IMG/VR virus record: IMGVR_UViG_3300045988_065473
Span: 1 to 58,410 of that record
DNA length: 58,410 nucleotides
Origin: a virus
Reading direction: 5' to 3' (one strand)
Shown piece after piece: positions 5,499 to 58,410 of the stretch. Position 1 is the first letter of the stretch. Every line of letters begins with the position of its first letter. The position numbers and the translations under genes were made by a program. A model generated the notes under the pieces. That model was not told the DNA's origin. It did not search any database and saw only the letters and a list, made by a program, of their open reading frames with translations.

Positions 5499-5540
5499 TT
5501 GTCGAATTATCGAAGTTTTTGAAGAACATTTTGTCCACGT

Positions 5541-6036
5541 TCATCCACTTTTTGTACACCTATCGGGCAAATTTACCTTGTCAATCCGTCCCCCATAAGC
5601 TGTAAATCGACAACATTCGCGCGGAATAAATAACGAATTATCGTCAATCTATTGCCTGTGATTGGTCGGCTTGTCAATCCGTCCCCCATAGCATTGGCTT
5701 AAAAGTTTTTCATCCACTTTTCGTACACGTTAGGCAAACCTAACCGTTAAGCGTTTCAACCTTTCGGATGTTAAACATCTGTTTATTTGGCGATATTTGC
5801 TTTGTGTTTTCCACTTTTTAAGAGAGAAAGAAAAGATTTTGTGGAAAATTTTCTTCTTCTGCTATTAGTAGAAGTTATTTTATAATCTTGTTAATAGTCT
5901 TGTTTTATATAATGTAAAGAGGTGTACAAAAAATGGATATAGGTGTACAGATTGTGGAAATAGGTGTACGAAATGTGGACAGTTAGGTGTACAAGAAGTG
6001 GAAATAGGTGTACACTTGCTATTGATTTGTACACCT
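5541..6036. repeat. Plasmid-type origin: 21-23-bp iterons (core AGGTGTACA...GTGGA) plus an AT-rich segment
   Basis: Direct copies start at 5920, 5941, 5962, 5985 and 6006. Inverted copies lie at 5541-5563, 5711-5733 and 6029-6036. A 21-bp repeat CTTGTCAATCCGTCCCCCATA occurs at 5577 and 5670. AT-rich stretch at about 5800-5919. Confidence 0.85.
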
Positions 6037-6076
6037 ATCTGTGATATACTCTTATACGAGAGGAGGCGTGATAAGA

Positions 6077-7162
6077 TTGTCTGATATTAAAGGCGGGAAC
6101 TTGGTTGAAAAAAGCAGACAGCTTGTTTGGGCAAAGTTCACTGATTATACAGCAGGAGAACTACGGTTACTTGAAGTGTATCTTAGCCGCATCAATCCGA
6201 GAGACCCTGAAACTTCAACGGTTCAGTTTACGTTACAAGAGTATTGCGAGTTTTTGGGGTTGAAAATCAACTCTAGGAATTTGAAAGCACAGGTCAAGCA
6301 TTTCATCGACAACTCTGTTGAAGTTCCTAGAGGTGACGGTTCAGGCTCGTTTGACCTGTATCCCCTGTTCAGTAGAGCAACTGTAAACTTTGAACCTAGT
6401 TTAATGAATATTACTGTGTCATTGTGTTGCAATCCGCTTCTGCAACCTGTTTTCTTCGACATTGCGGAGCGTGGATATGTCAAGTATCGCTTGCGCTACA
6501 CAGCGAATATGAAATCGCAGTATAGCATTTTGCTGTATTCAATTCTCCGAGAGTTCATCGGACGTGGCGTGAGCCAGCCCGAAATTACGTTGGATAGATT
6601 AAGGGAACAGCTTGGTGCAAGAGAACCTAGCTATCAAGAGTTCAAGCATCTTAGGCGGCGTGTCATTGATATTGCGGTAGCTGAAATAAACGAAGTATCA
6701 GACCTGTGCGTTGAATATGACAAGGTCATGAGAGGTCGCAATGCGGTTGCTGTGAAGTTCAATATAGCTTTCAAGTCTAATGAGCCAGTCATAGACGTGG
6801 AAGCTAACGAGGTTGAAAGCGTAGAGCTAAAAGATGTTCCAAAGAGCCAACGACCTGCCAGAAAGCCCCGCAGCGGCGCATACGAGGATGTGGATTGGGC
6901 ATCTATTGCGCCGGAGATGTCTAAAAGCCAGTGTATCTTGACTGCAAAGCTGGTGGCAAAGAGATTGCCGGAGAAGTATCCGAACATCAAGCCTAACAAG
7001 AAAAAGGAAGCTGTTGTAAACATCGTTGAGAACGCATACAGGATTCTTGTCAGTGAACGGCTTGATAAGATTGAAAAAGACCCCGGCGCTTATATGTACT
7101 CAATTTTGAAAGAAGCAGACCTTGACGATTATGCTACATTTGATGATAGCTTCTTGAAGTAG
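6077..7162 (+). CDS. repB: Rep_3/RepB-family plasmid replication initiator
   Basis: The Rep_3 pattern is visible along the whole length (LVEKSRQLVWAKF...ELRLLEVYLSRI...YSILLYSILREF...). TTG start 10 nt after GGAGG. Iterons lie directly upstream. Confidence 0.85.
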   Translation: MSDIKGGNLVEKSRQLVWAKFTDYTAGELRLLEVYLSRINPRDPETSTVQFTLQEYCEFLGLKINSRNLKAQVKHFIDNSVEVPRGDGSGSFDLYPLFSRATVNFEPSLMNITVSLCCNPLLQPVFFDIAERGYVKYRLRYTANMKSQYSILLYSILREFIGRGVSQPEITLDRLREQLGAREPSYQEFKHLRRRVIDIAVAEINEVSDLCVEYDKVMRGRNAVAVKFNIAFKSNEPVIDVEANEVESVELKDVPKSQRPARKPRSGAYEDVDWASIAPEMSKSQCILTAKLVAKRLPEKYPNIKPNKKKEAVVNIVENAYRILVSERLDKIEKDPGAYMYSILKEADLDDYATFDDSFLK

Positions 7163-7207
7163 TCAGATGTAGCACATTGAGCAGATGATGCAGAAAGGAG
7201 AAAGAGT

Positions 7208-7503: not shown

Positions 7504-8274
7504 ATGGCAAAAATCATAGCTGTCGCTAACCAGAAGGGCGGCACAGGAAAGACTACCACAAGCACCTGTCTGGCTGGTGCGTTGCAGTTGCTTGGCAAGA
7601 AAGTTTTACTGGTGGACTGCGATGCCCAGTGCAACGCAACGGACACCTACGGAGCACAGACAGAGGATGTATGCACCCTGTTTGATGTAATGACCCGGCA
7701 AGGCACGGTAGAGGAAGGAATCCAGAACTGTGAAGCTGGTGACATTCTGCCGTCCGACAGCGCATTGAAGGACATTGACGAGCAGCTTGTCAGGGACATG
7801 GGAAAGAACTTCCGGTTGAGAGAAGCCCTTGAAAGCGTATCTGGGCAGTACGATTATATTGTGCTGGACACTCCCCCGCAGTTGGGTTTGATGCTTGTAA
7901 ATGCGCTGATCGCATCGAACAGCGTCATTGTTCCAATGACCCCTGACCGCTACGCTGTGGCTGGTTTAAGCCAGCTTTCGCAGACAATCAATGATGTTAG
8001 GAGATACTTTAATCAAAATCTGAAAATCGAAGGGTTGCTGCTGAATAAGTTTGGGGGTCGGGAAATCCTTTCAAAAGAAGCAATCGAAGCACTACCAGAA
8101 GCCGCAAACCTTATGGGAACCAAAGTGCTTGACACAAAAATCCGAATGTCAATGGGGATTAGAAAGGCGCAATCAGAACGTCATGGTCTGTTTATTGGAA
8201 ATACGGCAAAATGCACTGGCGCAGAGGATTTCAAGGCGTTGGCGCAGATGATTGTAGAGGGGGAAGAAAAATGA
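7504..8274 (+). CDS. parA: ParA/Soj-type partition ATPase
   Basis: Deviant Walker A box: KIIAVANQKGGTGKTTT. Confidence 0.9.
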   Translation: MAKIIAVANQKGGTGKTTTSTCLAGALQLLGKKVLLVDCDAQCNATDTYGAQTEDVCTLFDVMTRQGTVEEGIQNCEAGDILPSDSALKDIDEQLVRDMGKNFRLREALESVSGQYDYIVLDTPPQLGLMLVNALIASNSVIVPMTPDRYAVAGLSQLSQTINDVRRYFNQNLKIEGLLLNKFGGREILSKEAIEALPEAANLMGTKVLDTKIRMSMGIRKAQSERHGLFIGNTAKCTGAEDFKALAQMIVEGEEK

Positions 8275-8666
8275 GCGATTTATACCCACATCTTTTGAAT
8301 GCAACTTGTGTTGATGACACGGAGCAAGTCTACGTTATCAATTTTGGTTTTTCATTTAATGACCTTTCCGATAAAGAGAAAGAAATGGCGTTTCATTCTC
8401 AGTGGTATCTAGCTGAAAAGTATTGCAAAAAGTGGCAGAAAGAGCTTGCAAATAATCAATGGGCGAAATCAGAAGATGAAATGCCAGATGAATTAAACCC
8501 ATATGTTATCGGGTTTAGCAAAGACGAATACGATGTAGAAATTGTAGGCTATGAAGAAGATTTTAAGGAATGGCGGGACAAAAGCGGAAAGCCGCATAAT
8601 ATAACTCACTGGATGCCGTTGCCGACCGTTCCTGACCTTGATGAAGATTGGGAGGAAGATGAATGA
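8271..8666 (+). CDS. DUF551-domain protein
   Basis: C-terminal ...GKPHNITHWMPLPTVP signature. ATGA overlap with parA. Confidence 0.7.
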   Translation: MSDLYPHLLNATCVDDTEQVYVINFGFSFNDLSDKEKEMAFHSQWYLAEKYCKKWQKELANNQWAKSEDEMPDELNPYVIGFSKDEYDVEIVGYEEDFKEWRDKSGKPHNITHWMPLPTVPDLDEDWEEDE

Positions 8667-9235
8667 AGTCAACCAGCAAAAAATCCTCAGGTCTGCTTGG
8701 CGGGTTTGATTTCCAGCCTATTTCTTCGGGGCAGACATTAAGCCGAAGTGAGCCAAAGGAAGAAGAAGTAAGCCAAGCAAAGCCGAACGAAGCCGAACAA
8801 GCACCAATTAAGCCAAGTGAAGCCGCAGACAGCTATACACAGCCTAATGAAGCACAATTAAGCGATATTAAGCCGAAGCAAGCCAAAGACGGCGAAACGC
8901 AGTCGAACAAAGCCGTAGTAAGCGAAAGTAAGCCAAAGAAGCTGAAACAGGCGAAGGAAGTTCAACGTCTTATCGAACAAGGCGATGTTTCCGGCGCACT
9001 AGCTGAAGCTGGTCTGACAAAGAAAAAAATCCCGATGCCGGAATCGCATCAGGGCGTTGCAAGTGGCGATGGCAAGCGTTCAAAGCGCATTACCATCCTT
9101 ATGAGCGAGGAGGAGCGCAAGTACATCAACCGTGAAGCCAGACGGCACGGAATGACGATCGGGCAGTTTGTTTACGCTCTGGCAGTTGCAGCGGCAGAGG
9201 GGAAGATTGAGTTGGAGGATTTCTTGGAGGATTGA
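8663..9235 (+). CDS. Ribbon-helix-helix protein (candidate ParG/ParR-like centromere-binding adaptor) with a 10-aa-repeat linker
   Basis: C-terminal KRITILMSEEERKYINREARRHGMTIGQFVYALA fits an RHH fold. Last gene of the parA operon. Confidence 0.6.
   Translation: MKSTSKKSSGLLGGFDFQPISSGQTLSRSEPKEEEVSQAKPNEAEQAPIKPSEAADSYTQPNEAQLSDIKPKQAKDGETQSNKAVVSESKPKKLKQAKEVQRLIEQGDVSGALAEAGLTKKKIPMPESHQGVASGDGKRSKRITILMSEEERKYINREARRHGMTIGQFVYALAVAAAEGKIELEDFLED
8741..8940 (+). repeat. 10-bp-phased AGCC(A/G)AA motif array (candidate centromere) inside the RHH gene
   Basis: 17 of 20 consecutive 10-mers start with AG and 11 with AGCC. The motif falls in all three codon phases. Confidence 0.8.
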
Positions 9236-9238
9236 CGT

Positions 9239-9736
9239 ATGATTGCTTATAGACCTCATCGTGGTTCTTTGAAAAACGCTCTAAAGGAAACAAGAGTGTT
9301 TGCCAATGAATACGAAATGAAGCAGAGAATTGCAAATGAATGGAACTTAACCTGTGGGAGAAAAGAATTGAACCCAGAAAATATCGTAATTTCACAAGTC
9401 GAATATTCCGATTACAAGAGTGGGTGGCAGAGGGTTCACGATGTTTGCGTCACGAAGATTGGAAACAGGAACCTCGTGGATGAGTTAGGGGTAGCTCAAT
9501 GTATTGGATACTGTTCGTATGACATTTCAAACGCCCCTAAAATTGGGCAGTGGATAAACGTGAAAAACGAGATGCCAGACGAATACAATCCGTATGTTAT
9601 TGGATTTAGCCCAGACGAATTTGATGTTGACATTGTTGGATATGAGCAAGACTTTGGTGAATGGCGAGATAAAAACGGAAAACCTCACAATATTACATAC
9701 TGGATGCCGTTACCTGAACCGCCTGTAAAATATTGA
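9239..9736 (+). CDS. DUF551-domain protein (paralog of 8271..8666)
   Basis: Its C-terminal ~52 aa are about 80% identical to the 8271..8666 product (EMPDEYNPYVIGFSPDEF...NITYWMPLPEPP). Confidence 0.7.
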   Translation: MIAYRPHRGSLKNALKETRVFANEYEMKQRIANEWNLTCGRKELNPENIVISQVEYSDYKSGWQRVHDVCVTKIGNRNLVDELGVAQCIGYCSYDISNAPKIGQWINVKNEMPDEYNPYVIGFSPDEFDVDIVGYEQDFGEWRDKNGKPHNITYWMPLPEPPVKY

Positions 9737-10037: not shown

Positions 10038-10484
10038 ATGATGAAAGTAGAACATTCTAGCGAAACAGATTCATTGGCGTATGAAGAATGGGCTAAAGAA
10101 CGGTCGGATGTCACAAATGTCAATTATGTTGAAACTGGATGTATAATTTGGCACTCTATCAAGAAAGAAGGATTCCCACCAGAACAAACTTGCGAAAAAT
10201 ATCTTATTTCCGTTGAAAATTGGCATACAGGGAAAAGCTACGTAAATGCCGCATATTTTATTAGGAAGGGATGGTTCGACAGCGTGTATACGGAAGAAGG
10301 GAAAATAATACCAGAACACGATATTGTAACACACTGGGCGAATTTGCCAAAACCGGCACAACTTCCCAAAAGGCCAAGATTCCCATTGGACAATCAAACG
10401 CCAGAAGAAAGAGAAGCTGAAGCAAAAGAAAAAGCAAAACAACTACAAGAAAAAATAATGAAAGCGTTTGGATATAACGTATAA
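10038..10484 (+). CDS. DUF551-like protein
   Basis: ...HDIVTHWANLPKPA signature. GGAGAAAGGAAG RBS. Confidence 0.6.
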   Translation: MMKVEHSSETDSLAYEEWAKERSDVTNVNYVETGCIIWHSIKKEGFPPEQTCEKYLISVENWHTGKSYVNAAYFIRKGWFDSVYTEEGKIIPEHDIVTHWANLPKPAQLPKRPRFPLDNQTPEEREAEAKEKAKQLQEKIMKAFGYNV

Positions 10485-10491
10485 AAAAATC

Positions 10492-10530
10492 CCCCTGTGT
10501 AGTTTTTAACGGCTACACAGGGGTTCTGTT
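10492..10530. terminator. Bidirectional rho-independent terminator
   Basis: CCCCTGTGTAG...CTACACAGGGG, an 11-bp stem between A- and T-rich runs at convergent gene ends. Confidence 0.8.
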
Positions 10531-14999: not shown

Positions 15000-16574
15000 T
15001 TAGGTCGTTGTCATGGACGCTACTGCGTCCTCAATGCGTTTGATGGCGATGTTTACGTCCCGCTGGTAGTCCAGCTTGACCCCAGCACCGTCACCAGCCT
15101 GCACCACCGTGTCAGGGCCGCACATTGTGAGCGCTTTGTAGGCGGCAATTTCAGCAGGGGTGAGCGGAGTTTCGATGGGATCGTCGAGAATGTAGAATAA
15201 AATGTATTCTCCTTCTTCCGGGTTTTTAGCGCCAATGGGAATAAAAACCTGCGCATTGTTTGTGTCTACATAAAAGTGAATGGTATCGCTAGTAAACGAA
15301 ACGAAATATGGCAATCTATTGCATAGGGCTTTTGCTGTATAATCTTTACCTTTGAGTGGCAACCGAATCGCAAGTCGTTTTGTTGCCGCAAGGTTAGTGG
15401 AACCTGTAATTACACAGGTTGACAAGTCTACAGCGTTCACCCTCTGTACCTTTACACCCCTTTCCAAGTCCACCTCGTCGCACACCCACTGCTGGCCGCT
15501 TTGGTCAGTGTAGTTGCCGCCGGAGGTGACAGGGATGCCGGGCAAGCCGTTGGGAGTGAGCAGCGTGAGAGTTTGCACTTTACCGCCCCCATCACCCAAG
15601 GTCACTGCAATCGTCCCGCCGTCACCAGCGCTCACGATAGGCACAGGGGCATCCGGCGTGGGTGTGCCGTCCTGAGTGCTCTTACCGTACACGGTCAGGC
15701 CGCACAGGGGCGCAGAGAACGCATCGTCAACGCTGAGCGGGTTGCCTGTCTCCGTGCCGATAAGGATGTTCTGCCGGGCCTTGACTGCGCTGATCGCGTC
15801 ACCTGCGGCTTTTGCGTCAGCGGCCTCGCTCTCATGGGTGAGGGTGGTATCCAGCGCTACGGCAGGGCCGGTCTCTCCTTTAGGGCCTTGCGGGCCGGTA
15901 TCACCTTTTTCGCCCTGTGGGCCAGTGTTGCCCGTAGCACCTGTGGGGCCTTGAGGGCCTTGCTCACCCTGCGGGCCGACCGGGCCAATGGGGCCAGTGT
16001 CGCCCTTGTCACCTTTCTCGCCTTTGAAATCGCCGCTTGCGATGCCGTCCTTCAGCTCTTGCAGACTGTCGGCGGCTTCCTGAGCGCTCTGGTCTGCGTT
16101 GCCCGCACTGTCAGCGGCTTGCTGTGCTGCGGTCTGTGCATCGGTCTTGGCTTGCTCTGCGGCGGTGGCATCGGTGTGCACGGCATCCACCAACTGCTGC
16201 CATGCAGGGGTGCCCGGTTCCGGCATGGTGCCGTCCTCTGTGCCGGAGTTGGCACTGACACGATACCGCAGGTCTGCGCTGGTGACGGTCTTAGTGCCGT
16301 CGCTGCCCTCAAAGGTGATGCACCCGCTCCCGGGCTGTGCGGTCACGCTGGCGGGCACGTCCACATAGCCGTCCACCACCAACGAGGATGACGGATCTTT
16401 GCCGTCCGGCACGTGCCAGAAGCAGCGGATAGTCAGCCCTTCCCACTCGCCGGTTGCATCGACGTGCAGGCGGTACACGCCCCGGTTCTTGGTGTAGCCA
16501 AAGCGCACCAGCTGCTCATAGCCCGGCACTTTGACGACGCCATTGGATGCGAGAGATACGCTTTGCTCGATCAT
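15000..16574 (-). CDS. Tail fibre with a collagen-like triple-helix repeat
   Basis: Gly-X-Y run [53 protein letters not shown]. Confidence 0.8.
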
Positions 16575-36816: not shown

Positions 36817-38031
36817 TTATTCTCCAGCTTTGAAATTGTAAATGGGCTTAATATGCTTTACAATATCAACGGTTGGAGAGATTGCGTTGATAATTTCCTG
36901 CGCTGGCTTATATGCCATCGGACATTCATCCAACGTGGATTCATCAGCTGAGGTGGTATAAATGTCGTTCATCTGCTTTTGGTATTCCTCAACGCTAAAC
37001 GCCTTTTTAGCCGCTGTTCTGCTATATAGTCTGCCAGCACCATGCGGAGCAGAGAAATTCCAATCAGGATTGCCCTTACCAACGCAGATAAGACTTCCGT
37101 CTCTCATATTAAGAGGAATAATCAGCTTCTCACCCTCTCTAGCGGATACAGAGCCTTTTCGGATAATATCATCCGATTCATCAATATAGTTATGAACAGT
37201 TTCAAAGAAGGACGCATGGGTCAGCATAGAATTGATTCCAACACCATCTAAAATGGTGTGCATAATTCTTGCTCTGTTCATCCTCGCAAAAGCCTGACAA
37301 ATTCGCATATCATTAAGGTAGGAATCACGTTCTTCGCCTTCAAGATAGCAAAGCTCATTTGGAATATCAGGGAACTGAACATCCAATTCTTTGATTTTTT
37401 GCGAGATTTCTTGTTCACGACCCTGCGCTTTCAGTTCCGCAATCAGACGTTCTGTGGCGTCTTTTCTTTTATTCTTTCCTTTAAGATTTGAAATGGCTAC
37501 GCTTTGATGGTACTCGGCAACCTGCTTTCCGAGATTTCGGCTTCCAGTATGGATAACAAGATACTGGTTCCCCTCTTCGTCCTCGTCCAACTCAATAAAA
37601 TGATTGCCACCGCCCAAAGTACCCATGCTGCGAAGAATCCAGTCAACATTGTGCAAGCTGTCCTTGCAGTCAAGCTGGCTAAGGAAAGAATCCGACATTT
37701 TCTGCGATTCGTGAACATTCATTCCAGCCGGAACTCGTTCTCTGATTACTTTATCTAACTTTTTCGGGTCGATGTGTTCAATTCCAAGTTCAGCGACAAG
37801 CATTCCGCAACCAATGTCCACGCCTACAATATTCGGAATGACTTTCTTGCCCAAGTTTGCAGTAAACCCAATTACGCACCCGGAACCAGCATGAACATCT
37901 GGCATAATGCGAATTTTGCATCCGTCAACAAAGCTCTGATTACAGAGCGTCAGAATTTGCTCAGATGCCTTGTCTTCGATATTGTCTGTGAACACCTTTG
38001 CGGACGCATATTTTCCGTCAATCGTTTTCAA
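36817..38031 (-). CDS. rtcB: RtcB-family 3'-phosphate/5'-OH RNA ligase
   Basis: Motifs MPDVHAG, GVDIGCGM, GGGNHFIE, HTGSRNLG, HNYI and SAPHGAGR are all present. Confidence 0.9.
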   Translation of the reverse strand: MKTIDGKYASAKVFTDNIEDKASEQILTLCNQSFVDGCKIRIMPDVHAGSGCVIGFTANLGKKVIPNIVGVDIGCGMLVAELGIEHIDPKKLDKVIRERVPAGMNVHESQKMSDSFLSQLDCKDSLHNVDWILRSMGTLGGGNHFIELDEDEEGNQYLVIHTGSRNLGKQVAEYHQSVAISNLKGKNKRKDATERLIAELKAQGREQEISQKIKELDVQFPDIPNELCYLEGEERDSYLNDMRICQAFARMNRARIMHTILDGVGINSMLTHASFFETVHNYIDESDDIIRKGSVSAREGEKLIIPLNMRDGSLICVGKGNPDWNFSAPHGAGRLYSRTAAKKAFSVEEYQKQMNDIYTTSADESTLDECPMAYKPAQEIINAISPTVDIVKHIKPIYNFKAGE

Positions 38032-58355: not shown

Positions 58356-58410
58356 CTGCACAAAAATCAATCTCCCCAGCACACGGAATCCGCTTCGTCT
58401 GGCCGCTGCC
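58356..58410. repeat. Terminal direct repeat copy (identical to 1-55)
   Basis: Exact identity read directly. Confidence 0.95.

Follow-up and report, generated by a model that had tools for sequence, protein, structure and literature searches.

A candidate intragenic centromere: 10-bp direct repeats in the linker-coding DNA of a predicted ParA partner from gut phage-plasmids

Introduction

Can a run of short repeats inside a protein-coding gene be kept for what it does as DNA rather than for the peptide that it encodes? This question is raised by a virus record of IMG/VR (IMGVR_UViG_3300045988_065473; its 58,410 nt constitute the whole stretch analyzed here and are referred to as the window), in which a gene for a 190-amino acid (aa) predicted partner of the partition ATPase ParA contains twenty consecutive direct repeats of 10 bp. 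The repeats lie in the part of this adaptor gene that encodes a linker, at positions 8741-8940. A first-pass annotation made from the sequence alone had proposed that the array is kept by selection on DNA and that it is a centromere for the product of the gene, whose C-terminus was read as a ribbon-helix-helix (RHH) fold. We analyzed the register of the array, its conservation among relatives, its counterparts in other lineages and the predicted protein. Our results indicate that the array is constrained as nucleic acid and that it is probably the centromere and the operator for the predicted RHH product.

Results

The 10-bp register

When the array is cut into consecutive 10-mers, AG opens 18 of the 20, AGC opens 16 and AGCC opens 12. 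The first-pass annotation had counted 17 and 11 for AG and AGCC; its register stands and its figures do not. All 12 occurrences of AGCC between positions 8720 and 9000 fall in register 0 modulo 10, and codon phases 0, 1 and 2 hold 2, 6 and 4 of them, in agreement with the earlier statement that the motif is read in all three phases. Base identity within the array amounts to 0.59 at a lag of 10, 0.53 at a lag of 20, 0.58 at a lag of 30 and 0.27 at a lag of 3. Because the identities at lags 10 and 20 match the identity at lag 30, the primary period is 10 bp and not 30 bp, and the possibility that the 10-bp Fourier power is a harmonic of a 30-bp repeat was ruled out on the same basis. The linker peptide presents a looser repeat of 30 bp (10 aa) than the DNA does, as had been claimed, with an amino-acid identity of 0.28 at lag 10. 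Autocorrelation likewise upheld the earlier description: the array ranks above all 200-bp windows of the genome for lag-10/20 identity (0.559 relative to a mean of 0.254 and a standard deviation of 0.030) and constitutes the genome-wide peak of 10-bp periodicity. The runner-up is a stretch around 15830-16100 on the minus strand within an open reading frame (ORF) at 15000-16574, where the period is an in-frame 9 bp and the product carries a collagen-like G-X-Y repeat.

Neither the peptide nor codon usage accounts for the 10-bp register in three codon phases. When the peptide was recoded 20,000 times with the codon usage of the window, the resulting sequences contained on average 4.2 in-register AGCC and at most 10, compared to the 12 observed, and permuting the synonymous codons within the array produced 12 in-register AGCC in 0.01% of the trials (1/10,000).

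Constraint among close relatives

We then considered 75 distinct sequences of the adaptor gene, each 573 nt long, with 86-98% nucleotide identity. The regions encoding the N-terminal, middle and RHH parts of the protein present a diversity of 0.16-0.20 at third codon positions as opposed to 0.001-0.08 at the first two positions. Within the array, third-position diversity is halved (0.096) and diversity at first and second positions is raised (0.05). There, diversity tracks the position in the 10-mer (Kruskal p=0.0016) and not the position in the codon (p=0.06), and the rest of the gene displays the reverse (p=3e-33 for codon position and p=0.91 for a mock 10-bp register). Third-codon sites of the array that fall outside unit positions 5 and 9 have a nucleotide diversity (pi) of 0.062, compared to 0.180 elsewhere in the gene (Mann-Whitney p=4e-6), and those at unit positions 5 and 9 reach 0.222, similar to neutral sites. 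The pattern holds when two-fold and four-fold sites are taken separately. The number of in-register AGCC ranges from 10 to 14 per relative (mode 13), and 73 of the 75 relatives lack any out-of-register AGCC. The best-kept units are those at 8741-8800, 8871-8890 and 8921-8940. The array is constrained as nucleic acid in a 10-nt register, with the peptide comparatively free, which bears out the DNA-level selection proposed by the first-pass annotation.

Two other sources of such constraint were ruled out. An overlapping gene was rejected because no ORF of at least 50 aa covers the array in the other frames or on the other strand. RNA structure or a known RNA family was rejected because the array RNA is less structured than its shuffles (z-score of +2.4) and an Rfam search with it returned no match. 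No internal promoter was found in the array on the plus strand.

Recurrence of the register in other lineages

Thirteen further members of the family, belonging to six lineages, were read at the DNA level. In 12 of the 13, the linker-coding DNA is periodic out of frame with a unit of 10 or 20 bp and presents lineage-specific motifs, with z-scores of 3.2-10.3 relative to codon shuffles. The P0132 lineage carries AAGTCAGnGG (z 7.8), and four members of the P0136 lineage carry ACAGCGRAAT (z 6.2-10.3) with cores in all three phases; these ACAGC cores are fixed and the encoded residues around them differ. P0141 presents AAGyC (z 4.1-4.5), P0135 a 20-bp unit, CACTTyRnGGCAGAAT (z 3.2), and the P0142 lineage a weaker 20-bp pattern (z 3.7-4.9). 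In the P0126 clade, the unit is CAGAATGAR, 9 bp long and in frame, and it is repeated about 19 times. By their array motif, the adaptor proteins include AAGCC-, ACAGC-, GTCAG- and CAGAATGA-types. Since 12 of the 13 members show out-of-frame periodicity with motifs of their own, the register is a trait of the family, and motif and peptide change. The comparison of homologs suggested in the first-pass annotation thus came out in its favor: linker peptides that cannot be aligned keep an out-of-frame register of 10 or 20 bp, each with its own motif.

Two family members also stand out for their surroundings. The ParA-adaptor pair of P0142 (L184, 798-4767) adjoins a tyrosine integrase and an HTH_36 protein instead of Rep3, and because it sits in an integrase-bearing element the pair is not limited to this phage group. 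A short-linker homolog (98 aa, P0139) in L186 has ACAAGTAT-type repeats at 470-520, directly after the terminator of its gene and near the end of the contig.

Variation of this kind could also be read as a by-product, in which a 10-bp unit was expanded by slippage or unequal recombination, selection acted only on the length, hydrophilicity and disorder of the spacer, and the register has no function. Family linkers are indeed all of low complexity and vary in length and unit number, the 9-bp clade proves that other periods occur, and 12-14-mers common to the arrays and to the second sites described below suggest a history of duplication. Such a process would nevertheless leave unaccounted for the three-fold lower synonymous diversity at eight of the ten unit positions, the lack of out-of-register AGCC in 73 of 75 relatives and the conserved non-coding copies of the motif. 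Moreover, a period of 10 or 20 bp bars in-frame indels of single units, yet it recurs in five lineages with different motifs. We regard this explanation as very unlikely.

The predicted ParA partner

The adaptor protein begins with a conserved basic peptide (MKSTSKKSSGLLGGFDFQ, encoded by 8663-8719), which is followed by a linker encoded by the array (approximately aa 20-87) that is predicted to be disordered, with an AlphaFold2 confidence (predicted local distance difference test, pLDDT) below 50 across aa 20-87. The model places two helices at aa 91-115 and a helix-helix unit at aa 149-178 (pLDDT 85-94) with a strand-like segment, KRITILM, just before it. This RHH-like domain spans aa 141-178, encoded by approximately 9083-9196. 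Its matches in Pfam are all sub-threshold, the best being NikA-like (1.8e-5, 25.2 bits relative to a cut-off of 27) with TacA1 and DUF6290 weaker. The top Foldseek matches in the PDB are mostly RHH proteins (CopG, TacA1, Arc, CdbA, AtaR, AmrZ and NikA), and the template modeling scores to the target are 0.45-0.83 (0.73-0.83 for CopG), yet E-values exceed 1 for this very small domain. No sequence match of the protein was found in the PDB, and no ParB-type Pfam domain was detected in its 190 aa.

The family alignment has invariant columns in the N-terminal and RHH parts. Distant homologs (31-47% identity) share only the N-terminal peptide MKxTSxKxSGLLG and the RHH region, and their linkers cannot be aligned. 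The adaptor gene follows parA immediately, with overlapping stop and start codons, in L181-L185, and it starts 3 bp past the parA stop in L178. A basic peptide at the N-terminus, a predicted disordered linker and an RHH-like domain at the C-terminus make the protein look like a ParA partner, and type Ib centromere-binding proteins such as ParG have the same layout. We also compared the beta-strand of the RHH-like domain to the motif of the array and found RVSV with CAGAAT-type, RITI with AGC-type and RM[AC] with AAGyC-type motifs. This pairing is only suggestive, as the samples are few and non-independent.

Second arrays with the motif of the lineage

Each linker array was turned into a position weight matrix (PWM), with which the same element was scanned in blocks of four consecutive units. 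At each of five loci representing four lineages, the scan identified a single additional strong array, built on the lineage's own motif. In the present genome, the second site scored 41.6. Parts of the main array reached 45.3 and 43.5, and the site ranked next had 11.6. The second site of L174 is intergenic and directly upstream of parA (40.6; own array 43.6; next 9.7), and that of L178 is also upstream of parA (23.5; own array 44.5; next 10.8), so an array upstream of parA accompanies the intragenic one in both. In L181 (46.0; own array 45.3; next 12.8) and L182 (40.9; own array 44.4; next 16.2), the second site occupies the low-complexity start of another gene. There, ACAGC arrays of 10 bp (5602-5646 in L181 and 5327-5371 in L182, both on the minus strand) lie in the N-terminal part of a gene of 171-174 aa on the opposite strand and encode QPNTAQYS, which resembles the adaptor linker of those phages. 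The homolog of this gene in the window carries no AAGCC array.

The second array of this genome is the only other phased AAGCC cluster that it contains. It ends one base ahead of the ATG (58297) of a Sak4-like gene (PHROGs 6.7e-75) and overlaps the ribosome-binding region of that gene. This five-unit mini-array is kept in relatives even when either flanking gene is replaced, and 1-nt indels among relatives indicate that it is non-coding. The presence of the lineage's motif both in the linker and at the classical position of an operator or centromere is what a lineage-specific DNA-binding protein would predict, and the RHH domain is the sole lineage-specific DNA-binding candidate that always travels with the array.

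The location of these sites bears on a reading in which the RHH protein or another regulator binds the array mainly to control transcription, as an operator or a roadblock within the rep-par operon, with the Sak4-side array as a second operator and the true centromere elsewhere or absent. RHH proteins very frequently act as repressors, as do CopG, Arc and AmrZ among the Foldseek matches, the Sak4-side site stands right before a gene start and over its ribosome-binding region, and the arrays of L174 and L178 occupy the operator position of type Ib partition systems just upstream of parA. Twenty contiguous units are, however, far beyond typical operators, and the operon yielded no alternative candidate for a centromere. 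In type Ib systems, it is common for one protein to bind operator and centromere alike, the two being built of the same kind of repeat (PMC7308502, PMC9499535). The conservation of the ParA-proximal position and of the N-terminal peptide also points to partition, and we consider a mainly transcriptional role unlikely.

Alternatively, the repeats might act in the mRNA, for instance as a purine-rich platform, free of structure, that serves a factor or translation; this would account for the location of every copy on the sense strand. All second sites are sense-oriented and three are found just before start codons, and the array RNA is unusually unstructured, with the z-score given above. A purine-rich bias of the coding strand also predicts the sense orientation, however, and a period of 10 nt is the helical repeat of B-DNA with no known rationale in single-stranded RNA. 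In addition, Rfam offers no match, and a single domain expected to bind nucleic acid sequence-specifically accompanies the array; it is RHH-like, and RHH domains bind duplex DNA. An element acting at the RNA level appears highly improbable.

Exchange of the linker and the RHH domain

Sister phages of the P0126 clade keep parA (75-81% nucleotide identity) and the first 57 nt of the adaptor gene (86%). Past this point, their linker is unrelated and their RHH domain is only 53-57% identical to that of the present genome. Linker and RHH domain are thus inherited together and were exchanged as one cassette in the sister clade. Two of these phages carry a truncated copy of the AAGCC-type gene downstream of the P0126-type adaptor gene (L170, 10862-11215; L171, 10832-11185); it comprises the middle helices and the RHH domain, with 92% aa identity, and is devoid of the N-terminal peptide and of most of the array. 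In L172 and L173, only a 10-aa remnant of the AAGCC-type gene is found.

Genome and operon

Bases 1-55 of the window are identical to bases 58356-58410 (k-mer overlap), which indicates a circular assembly of approximately 58,355 bp. The element is a tailed phage, with genes for the tape measure, major head, portal and large terminase proteins, that also possesses a plasmid-type module (Table 1). A gene for an RtcB-like RNA ligase (36817-38031 on the minus strand; PHROG 4e-134) adjoins the large terminase gene. The phage falls in a group that is very common in the human gut (513 IMG/VR loci, 819 protein clusters). The queries used against PLSDB plasmids, GTDB genomes and JGI metagenomes returned no hit, no cultured or plasmid relative was found, and those used in GenBank retrieved only two unannotated faecal phage contigs.

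Table 1. Coordinates of the two arrays and of the replication and partition features in the window.
Feature	Position	Strand	Remarks
Main array, twenty direct repeats of 10 bp with the consensus (A)AGCCRAAGN	8741..8940	+	Periodicity, null models, conservation in relatives
Second array, five units: AAGCCAAAGT AAGAACAATG AAGCCTAATG AAGCCAAAGA AAGGAAAGAA	58299..58348	-	Same 10-bp register, non-coding
Rep3 iterons, 21 bp, about five direct copies, core AGGTGTACA	5916-6040	+	Just upstream of rep
Promoter-like site	6022-6050	+	Heads the rep-par operon
Rep3 initiator gene (PF01051, PF21205)	6041-7162	+	First gene of the rep-par operon
orf92, ORF of 92 aa	7208-7486	+	Between rep and parA
parA, small Walker-type ParA, 256 aa	7504-8274	+	Pfam AAA_31 8.9e-55, CbiA 3.7e-26
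DUF551 ORF	8271-8666	+	Between parA and the adaptor gene
Adaptor (putative ParA partner) gene, 190 aa	8663..9235	+	Linker part encoded by the array
Terminator-like hairpin	10492-10523	+	Closes the rep-par operon

The ParA has no N-terminal DNA-binding extension or domain, as is typical of type Ib, and its nearest solved structures are a ParA family protein (8ray) and Soj. The partner gene is located downstream of parA, adjacent to it in relatives and in the same operon here. The adaptor gene is neither next to parA nor last in the operon of this genome because a DUF551 ORF intervenes and three co-directional ORFs follow ahead of the terminator-like hairpin; its description as the last gene of the parA operon was therefore mistaken. 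Three DUF551 paralogs (8271-8666, 9239-9736 and 10038-10484) are interleaved with the partition genes, where relatives present other small ORFs or none. In contrast, the earlier remark that no array is visible upstream of parA proved correct for AGCC-type repeats in the window. The centromere and operator of type Ib systems are sited in intergenic DNA upstream of parA, and the window has no AGCC-type array there.

Apart from the Rep3 iterons, we found no repeat array in the rep-par operon besides the intragenic one. Inverted copies of the iteron are present at 5540-5559 and 5709-5728, and an exact 21-nt repeat (CTTGTCAATCCGTCCCCCATA) is present at 5577 and 5670. Four phased units of 9 bp (CAGATGTAG CACATTGAG CAGATGATG CAGAAAGGA) occupy 7164-7199 between the rep stop codon and orf92. 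These CAGA units match the linker motif of the P0126 clade and have a z-score of approximately 4.8 in L173, where the sequence is identical. No cognate P0126-type RHH protein is encoded in this genome.

Discussion

Comparison to known partition systems

Judged by its sequence, the system would operate in the manner of type Ib partition: its ParA and, in relatives, its gene order are those of the class, with the RHH domain sub-threshold. Type Ia systems rely on a helix-turn-helix (HTH) ParB with an N-terminal CTPase domain and a 16-bp palindromic parS, and the repeats described here are direct and non-palindromic. The RHH ParB of plasmid pCXC100 cooperatively binds nine unspaced, weakly conserved and non-palindromic 9-bp direct repeats (AGNTGGAAA) (PMC3074162). 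This Leifsonia system resembles ours in having a Walker ParA, a small RHH protein (RHH-like in our case) and unspaced, weakly conserved direct repeats with one dimer per repeat, the last of which is a prediction here. To its nine 9-bp units correspond the approximately 19 units of 9 bp in the P0126 sister clade. For pCXC100, a centromere inside the ParB gene is not reported, whereas the present array is in the frame of the putative binding protein itself, contains 20 x 10 bp and forms a linker encoded in three frames.

The ParF/ParG/parH system of TP228 and the delta/omega/parS system of pSM19035 offer a likeness of another kind, with flexible-tailed RHH adaptors, arrays of short repeats and an adaptor that doubles as repressor. 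The tails of ParG and omega measure a few dozen residues, compared to about 120 in the adaptor protein, and pSM19035 carries several parS sites per replicon. ParG and omega sites are found in intergenic promoter regions, with the omega heptads in mixed orientation, whereas the present repeats are intragenic and direct. The flexible N-terminal tails of TP228 ParG stimulate the ATPase activity of ParF (PMC7308502), and in pSM19035 the RHH ParB, omega, activates ParA only when at least four repeats are contiguous (PMC9499535).

The first-pass annotation had cited ParR/parC, ParG and omega together as arrays with one motif per helical turn. This description suits ParR/parC and not the other two, since the sites of ParG consist of tetramer boxes separated by AT-rich spacers (PMC3130281) and those of omega consist of 7-bp heptads (PMC9499535). 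By analogy, pCXC100 ParB and ParR/parC are the better counterparts of the array. In the type II systems of R1 and pSK41, RHH dimers of ParR occupy direct repeats of 10 to 11 bp, about one per helical turn, and build a superhelical partition complex. The parC of R1 has ten repeats in two blocks and is intergenic, upstream of parM. The motor of these systems is the actin-like ParM, whereas it is a Walker ParA here.

Centromere sites inside the gene of their binding protein have a parallel: a parS was reportedly located within spo0J of Bacillus subtilis by Lin and Grossman in 1998. That site is a single 16-bp palindrome in the region of a conserved domain, bound by an HTH ParB CTPase, and not an out-of-frame repeat array that forms a linker. 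RepA_N replicons such as pAD1 likewise have bound DNA repeats in the poorly conserved central part of the protein's own gene. Those repeats belong to an origin and its initiator, whereas the initiator here is Rep3 with its 21-bp iterons upstream, and the array resides in the gene of the putative ParA partner. In the literature covered, which is incomplete, we found no report of an RHH adaptor gene with its own centromere or of a centromere of linker-coding repeats, which is weak evidence.

A proposed mechanism and its standing

We propose that a cis-acting array of twenty unspaced 10-bp repeats (AAGCCRAAGN), kept by selection on DNA, overlies the linker-coding part of the adaptor gene. RHH dimers of the same protein would occupy successive repeats cooperatively, approximately one per helical turn, and the coated array would be the partition complex of an extrachromosomal phage-plasmid. 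The long flexible linkers would offer the basic N-terminal peptides to nucleoid-bound ParA-ATP, and these peptides would stimulate the ATPase activity of ParA and lead to segregation. Occupancy of the array within the operon would probably also throttle read-through and result in autoregulation, and the five-unit copy in front of the Sak4-like gene may be bound as well, be it for regulation or as an auxiliary centromere. With reader and site in one gene, the two would move together as a specificity cassette. We infer binding by the RHH domain, centromere activity, stimulation of ParA and autoregulation from the patterns described above; the link between array and adaptor that the first-pass annotation had drawn receives indirect support from the second sites, from the cassette exchange and from the layout of tail, linker and RHH domain.

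We estimate at roughly 55% the probability that the RHH product of the gene binds the array and that the array serves as the partition site. The broader claim that it is a functional protein-binding array is, in our judgment, likely to be correct. Several observations weigh against the proposed partition role. The RHH assignment remains under the thresholds for the family in both Pfam (25.2 relative to 27) and Foldseek (E > 1), and a DUF551 gene parts parA from the adaptor gene in this genome. The 75 relatives are not independent, and the tests on site classes ignore phylogeny and recombination. In the P0126 clade, the 9-bp array is in frame, such that DNA-level and peptide-level causes are inseparable there. 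All five second sites are in the sense orientation of local transcription, which leaves room for an RNA-level or mutational explanation. Finally, all four phages of the swapped clade (L170-L173) keep the AAGCC mini-array ahead of the Sak4-like gene or its replacement, and in L172 and L173 it persists with no AAGCC-type RHH gene in the 16-20 kb that were read. No switch of the mini-array motif accompanies the switch of RHH type in this clade, and this test of covariation lends no support to the hypothesis. Because the mini-array is kept in a clade with a swapped RHH domain, it does not strictly follow its presumed reader. Its persistence appears to argue against a simple picture of one reader and one site, or else the swap was recent.

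Implications

It is quite possible, although we advance it tentatively, that a family of ParA partners in uncultured gut phage-plasmids and related elements encodes its own centromere in the DNA of its linker. A single gene would then be a self-contained and exchangeable cassette for partition and incompatibility, and its linker peptide, read in three frames, would for the most part be a side effect of selection on the DNA. The claim about the array can be tested directly with the 190-aa protein and a 200-bp DNA fragment. If it is true, this would be a case of dual coding in which a protein-binding DNA array dictates a disordered segment of the very protein that binds it, and it would represent a new layout of partition systems with the centromere inside the adaptor gene. 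The specificity of partition, and hence incompatibility, could be swapped by exchanging part of one gene, and out-of-frame 10-bp periodicity beside parA would provide a signature of centromeres in uncultured plasmids and phage-plasmids. As this phage group is very common in the human gut, such a mechanism would bear on the plasmid persistence of abundant gut phages.

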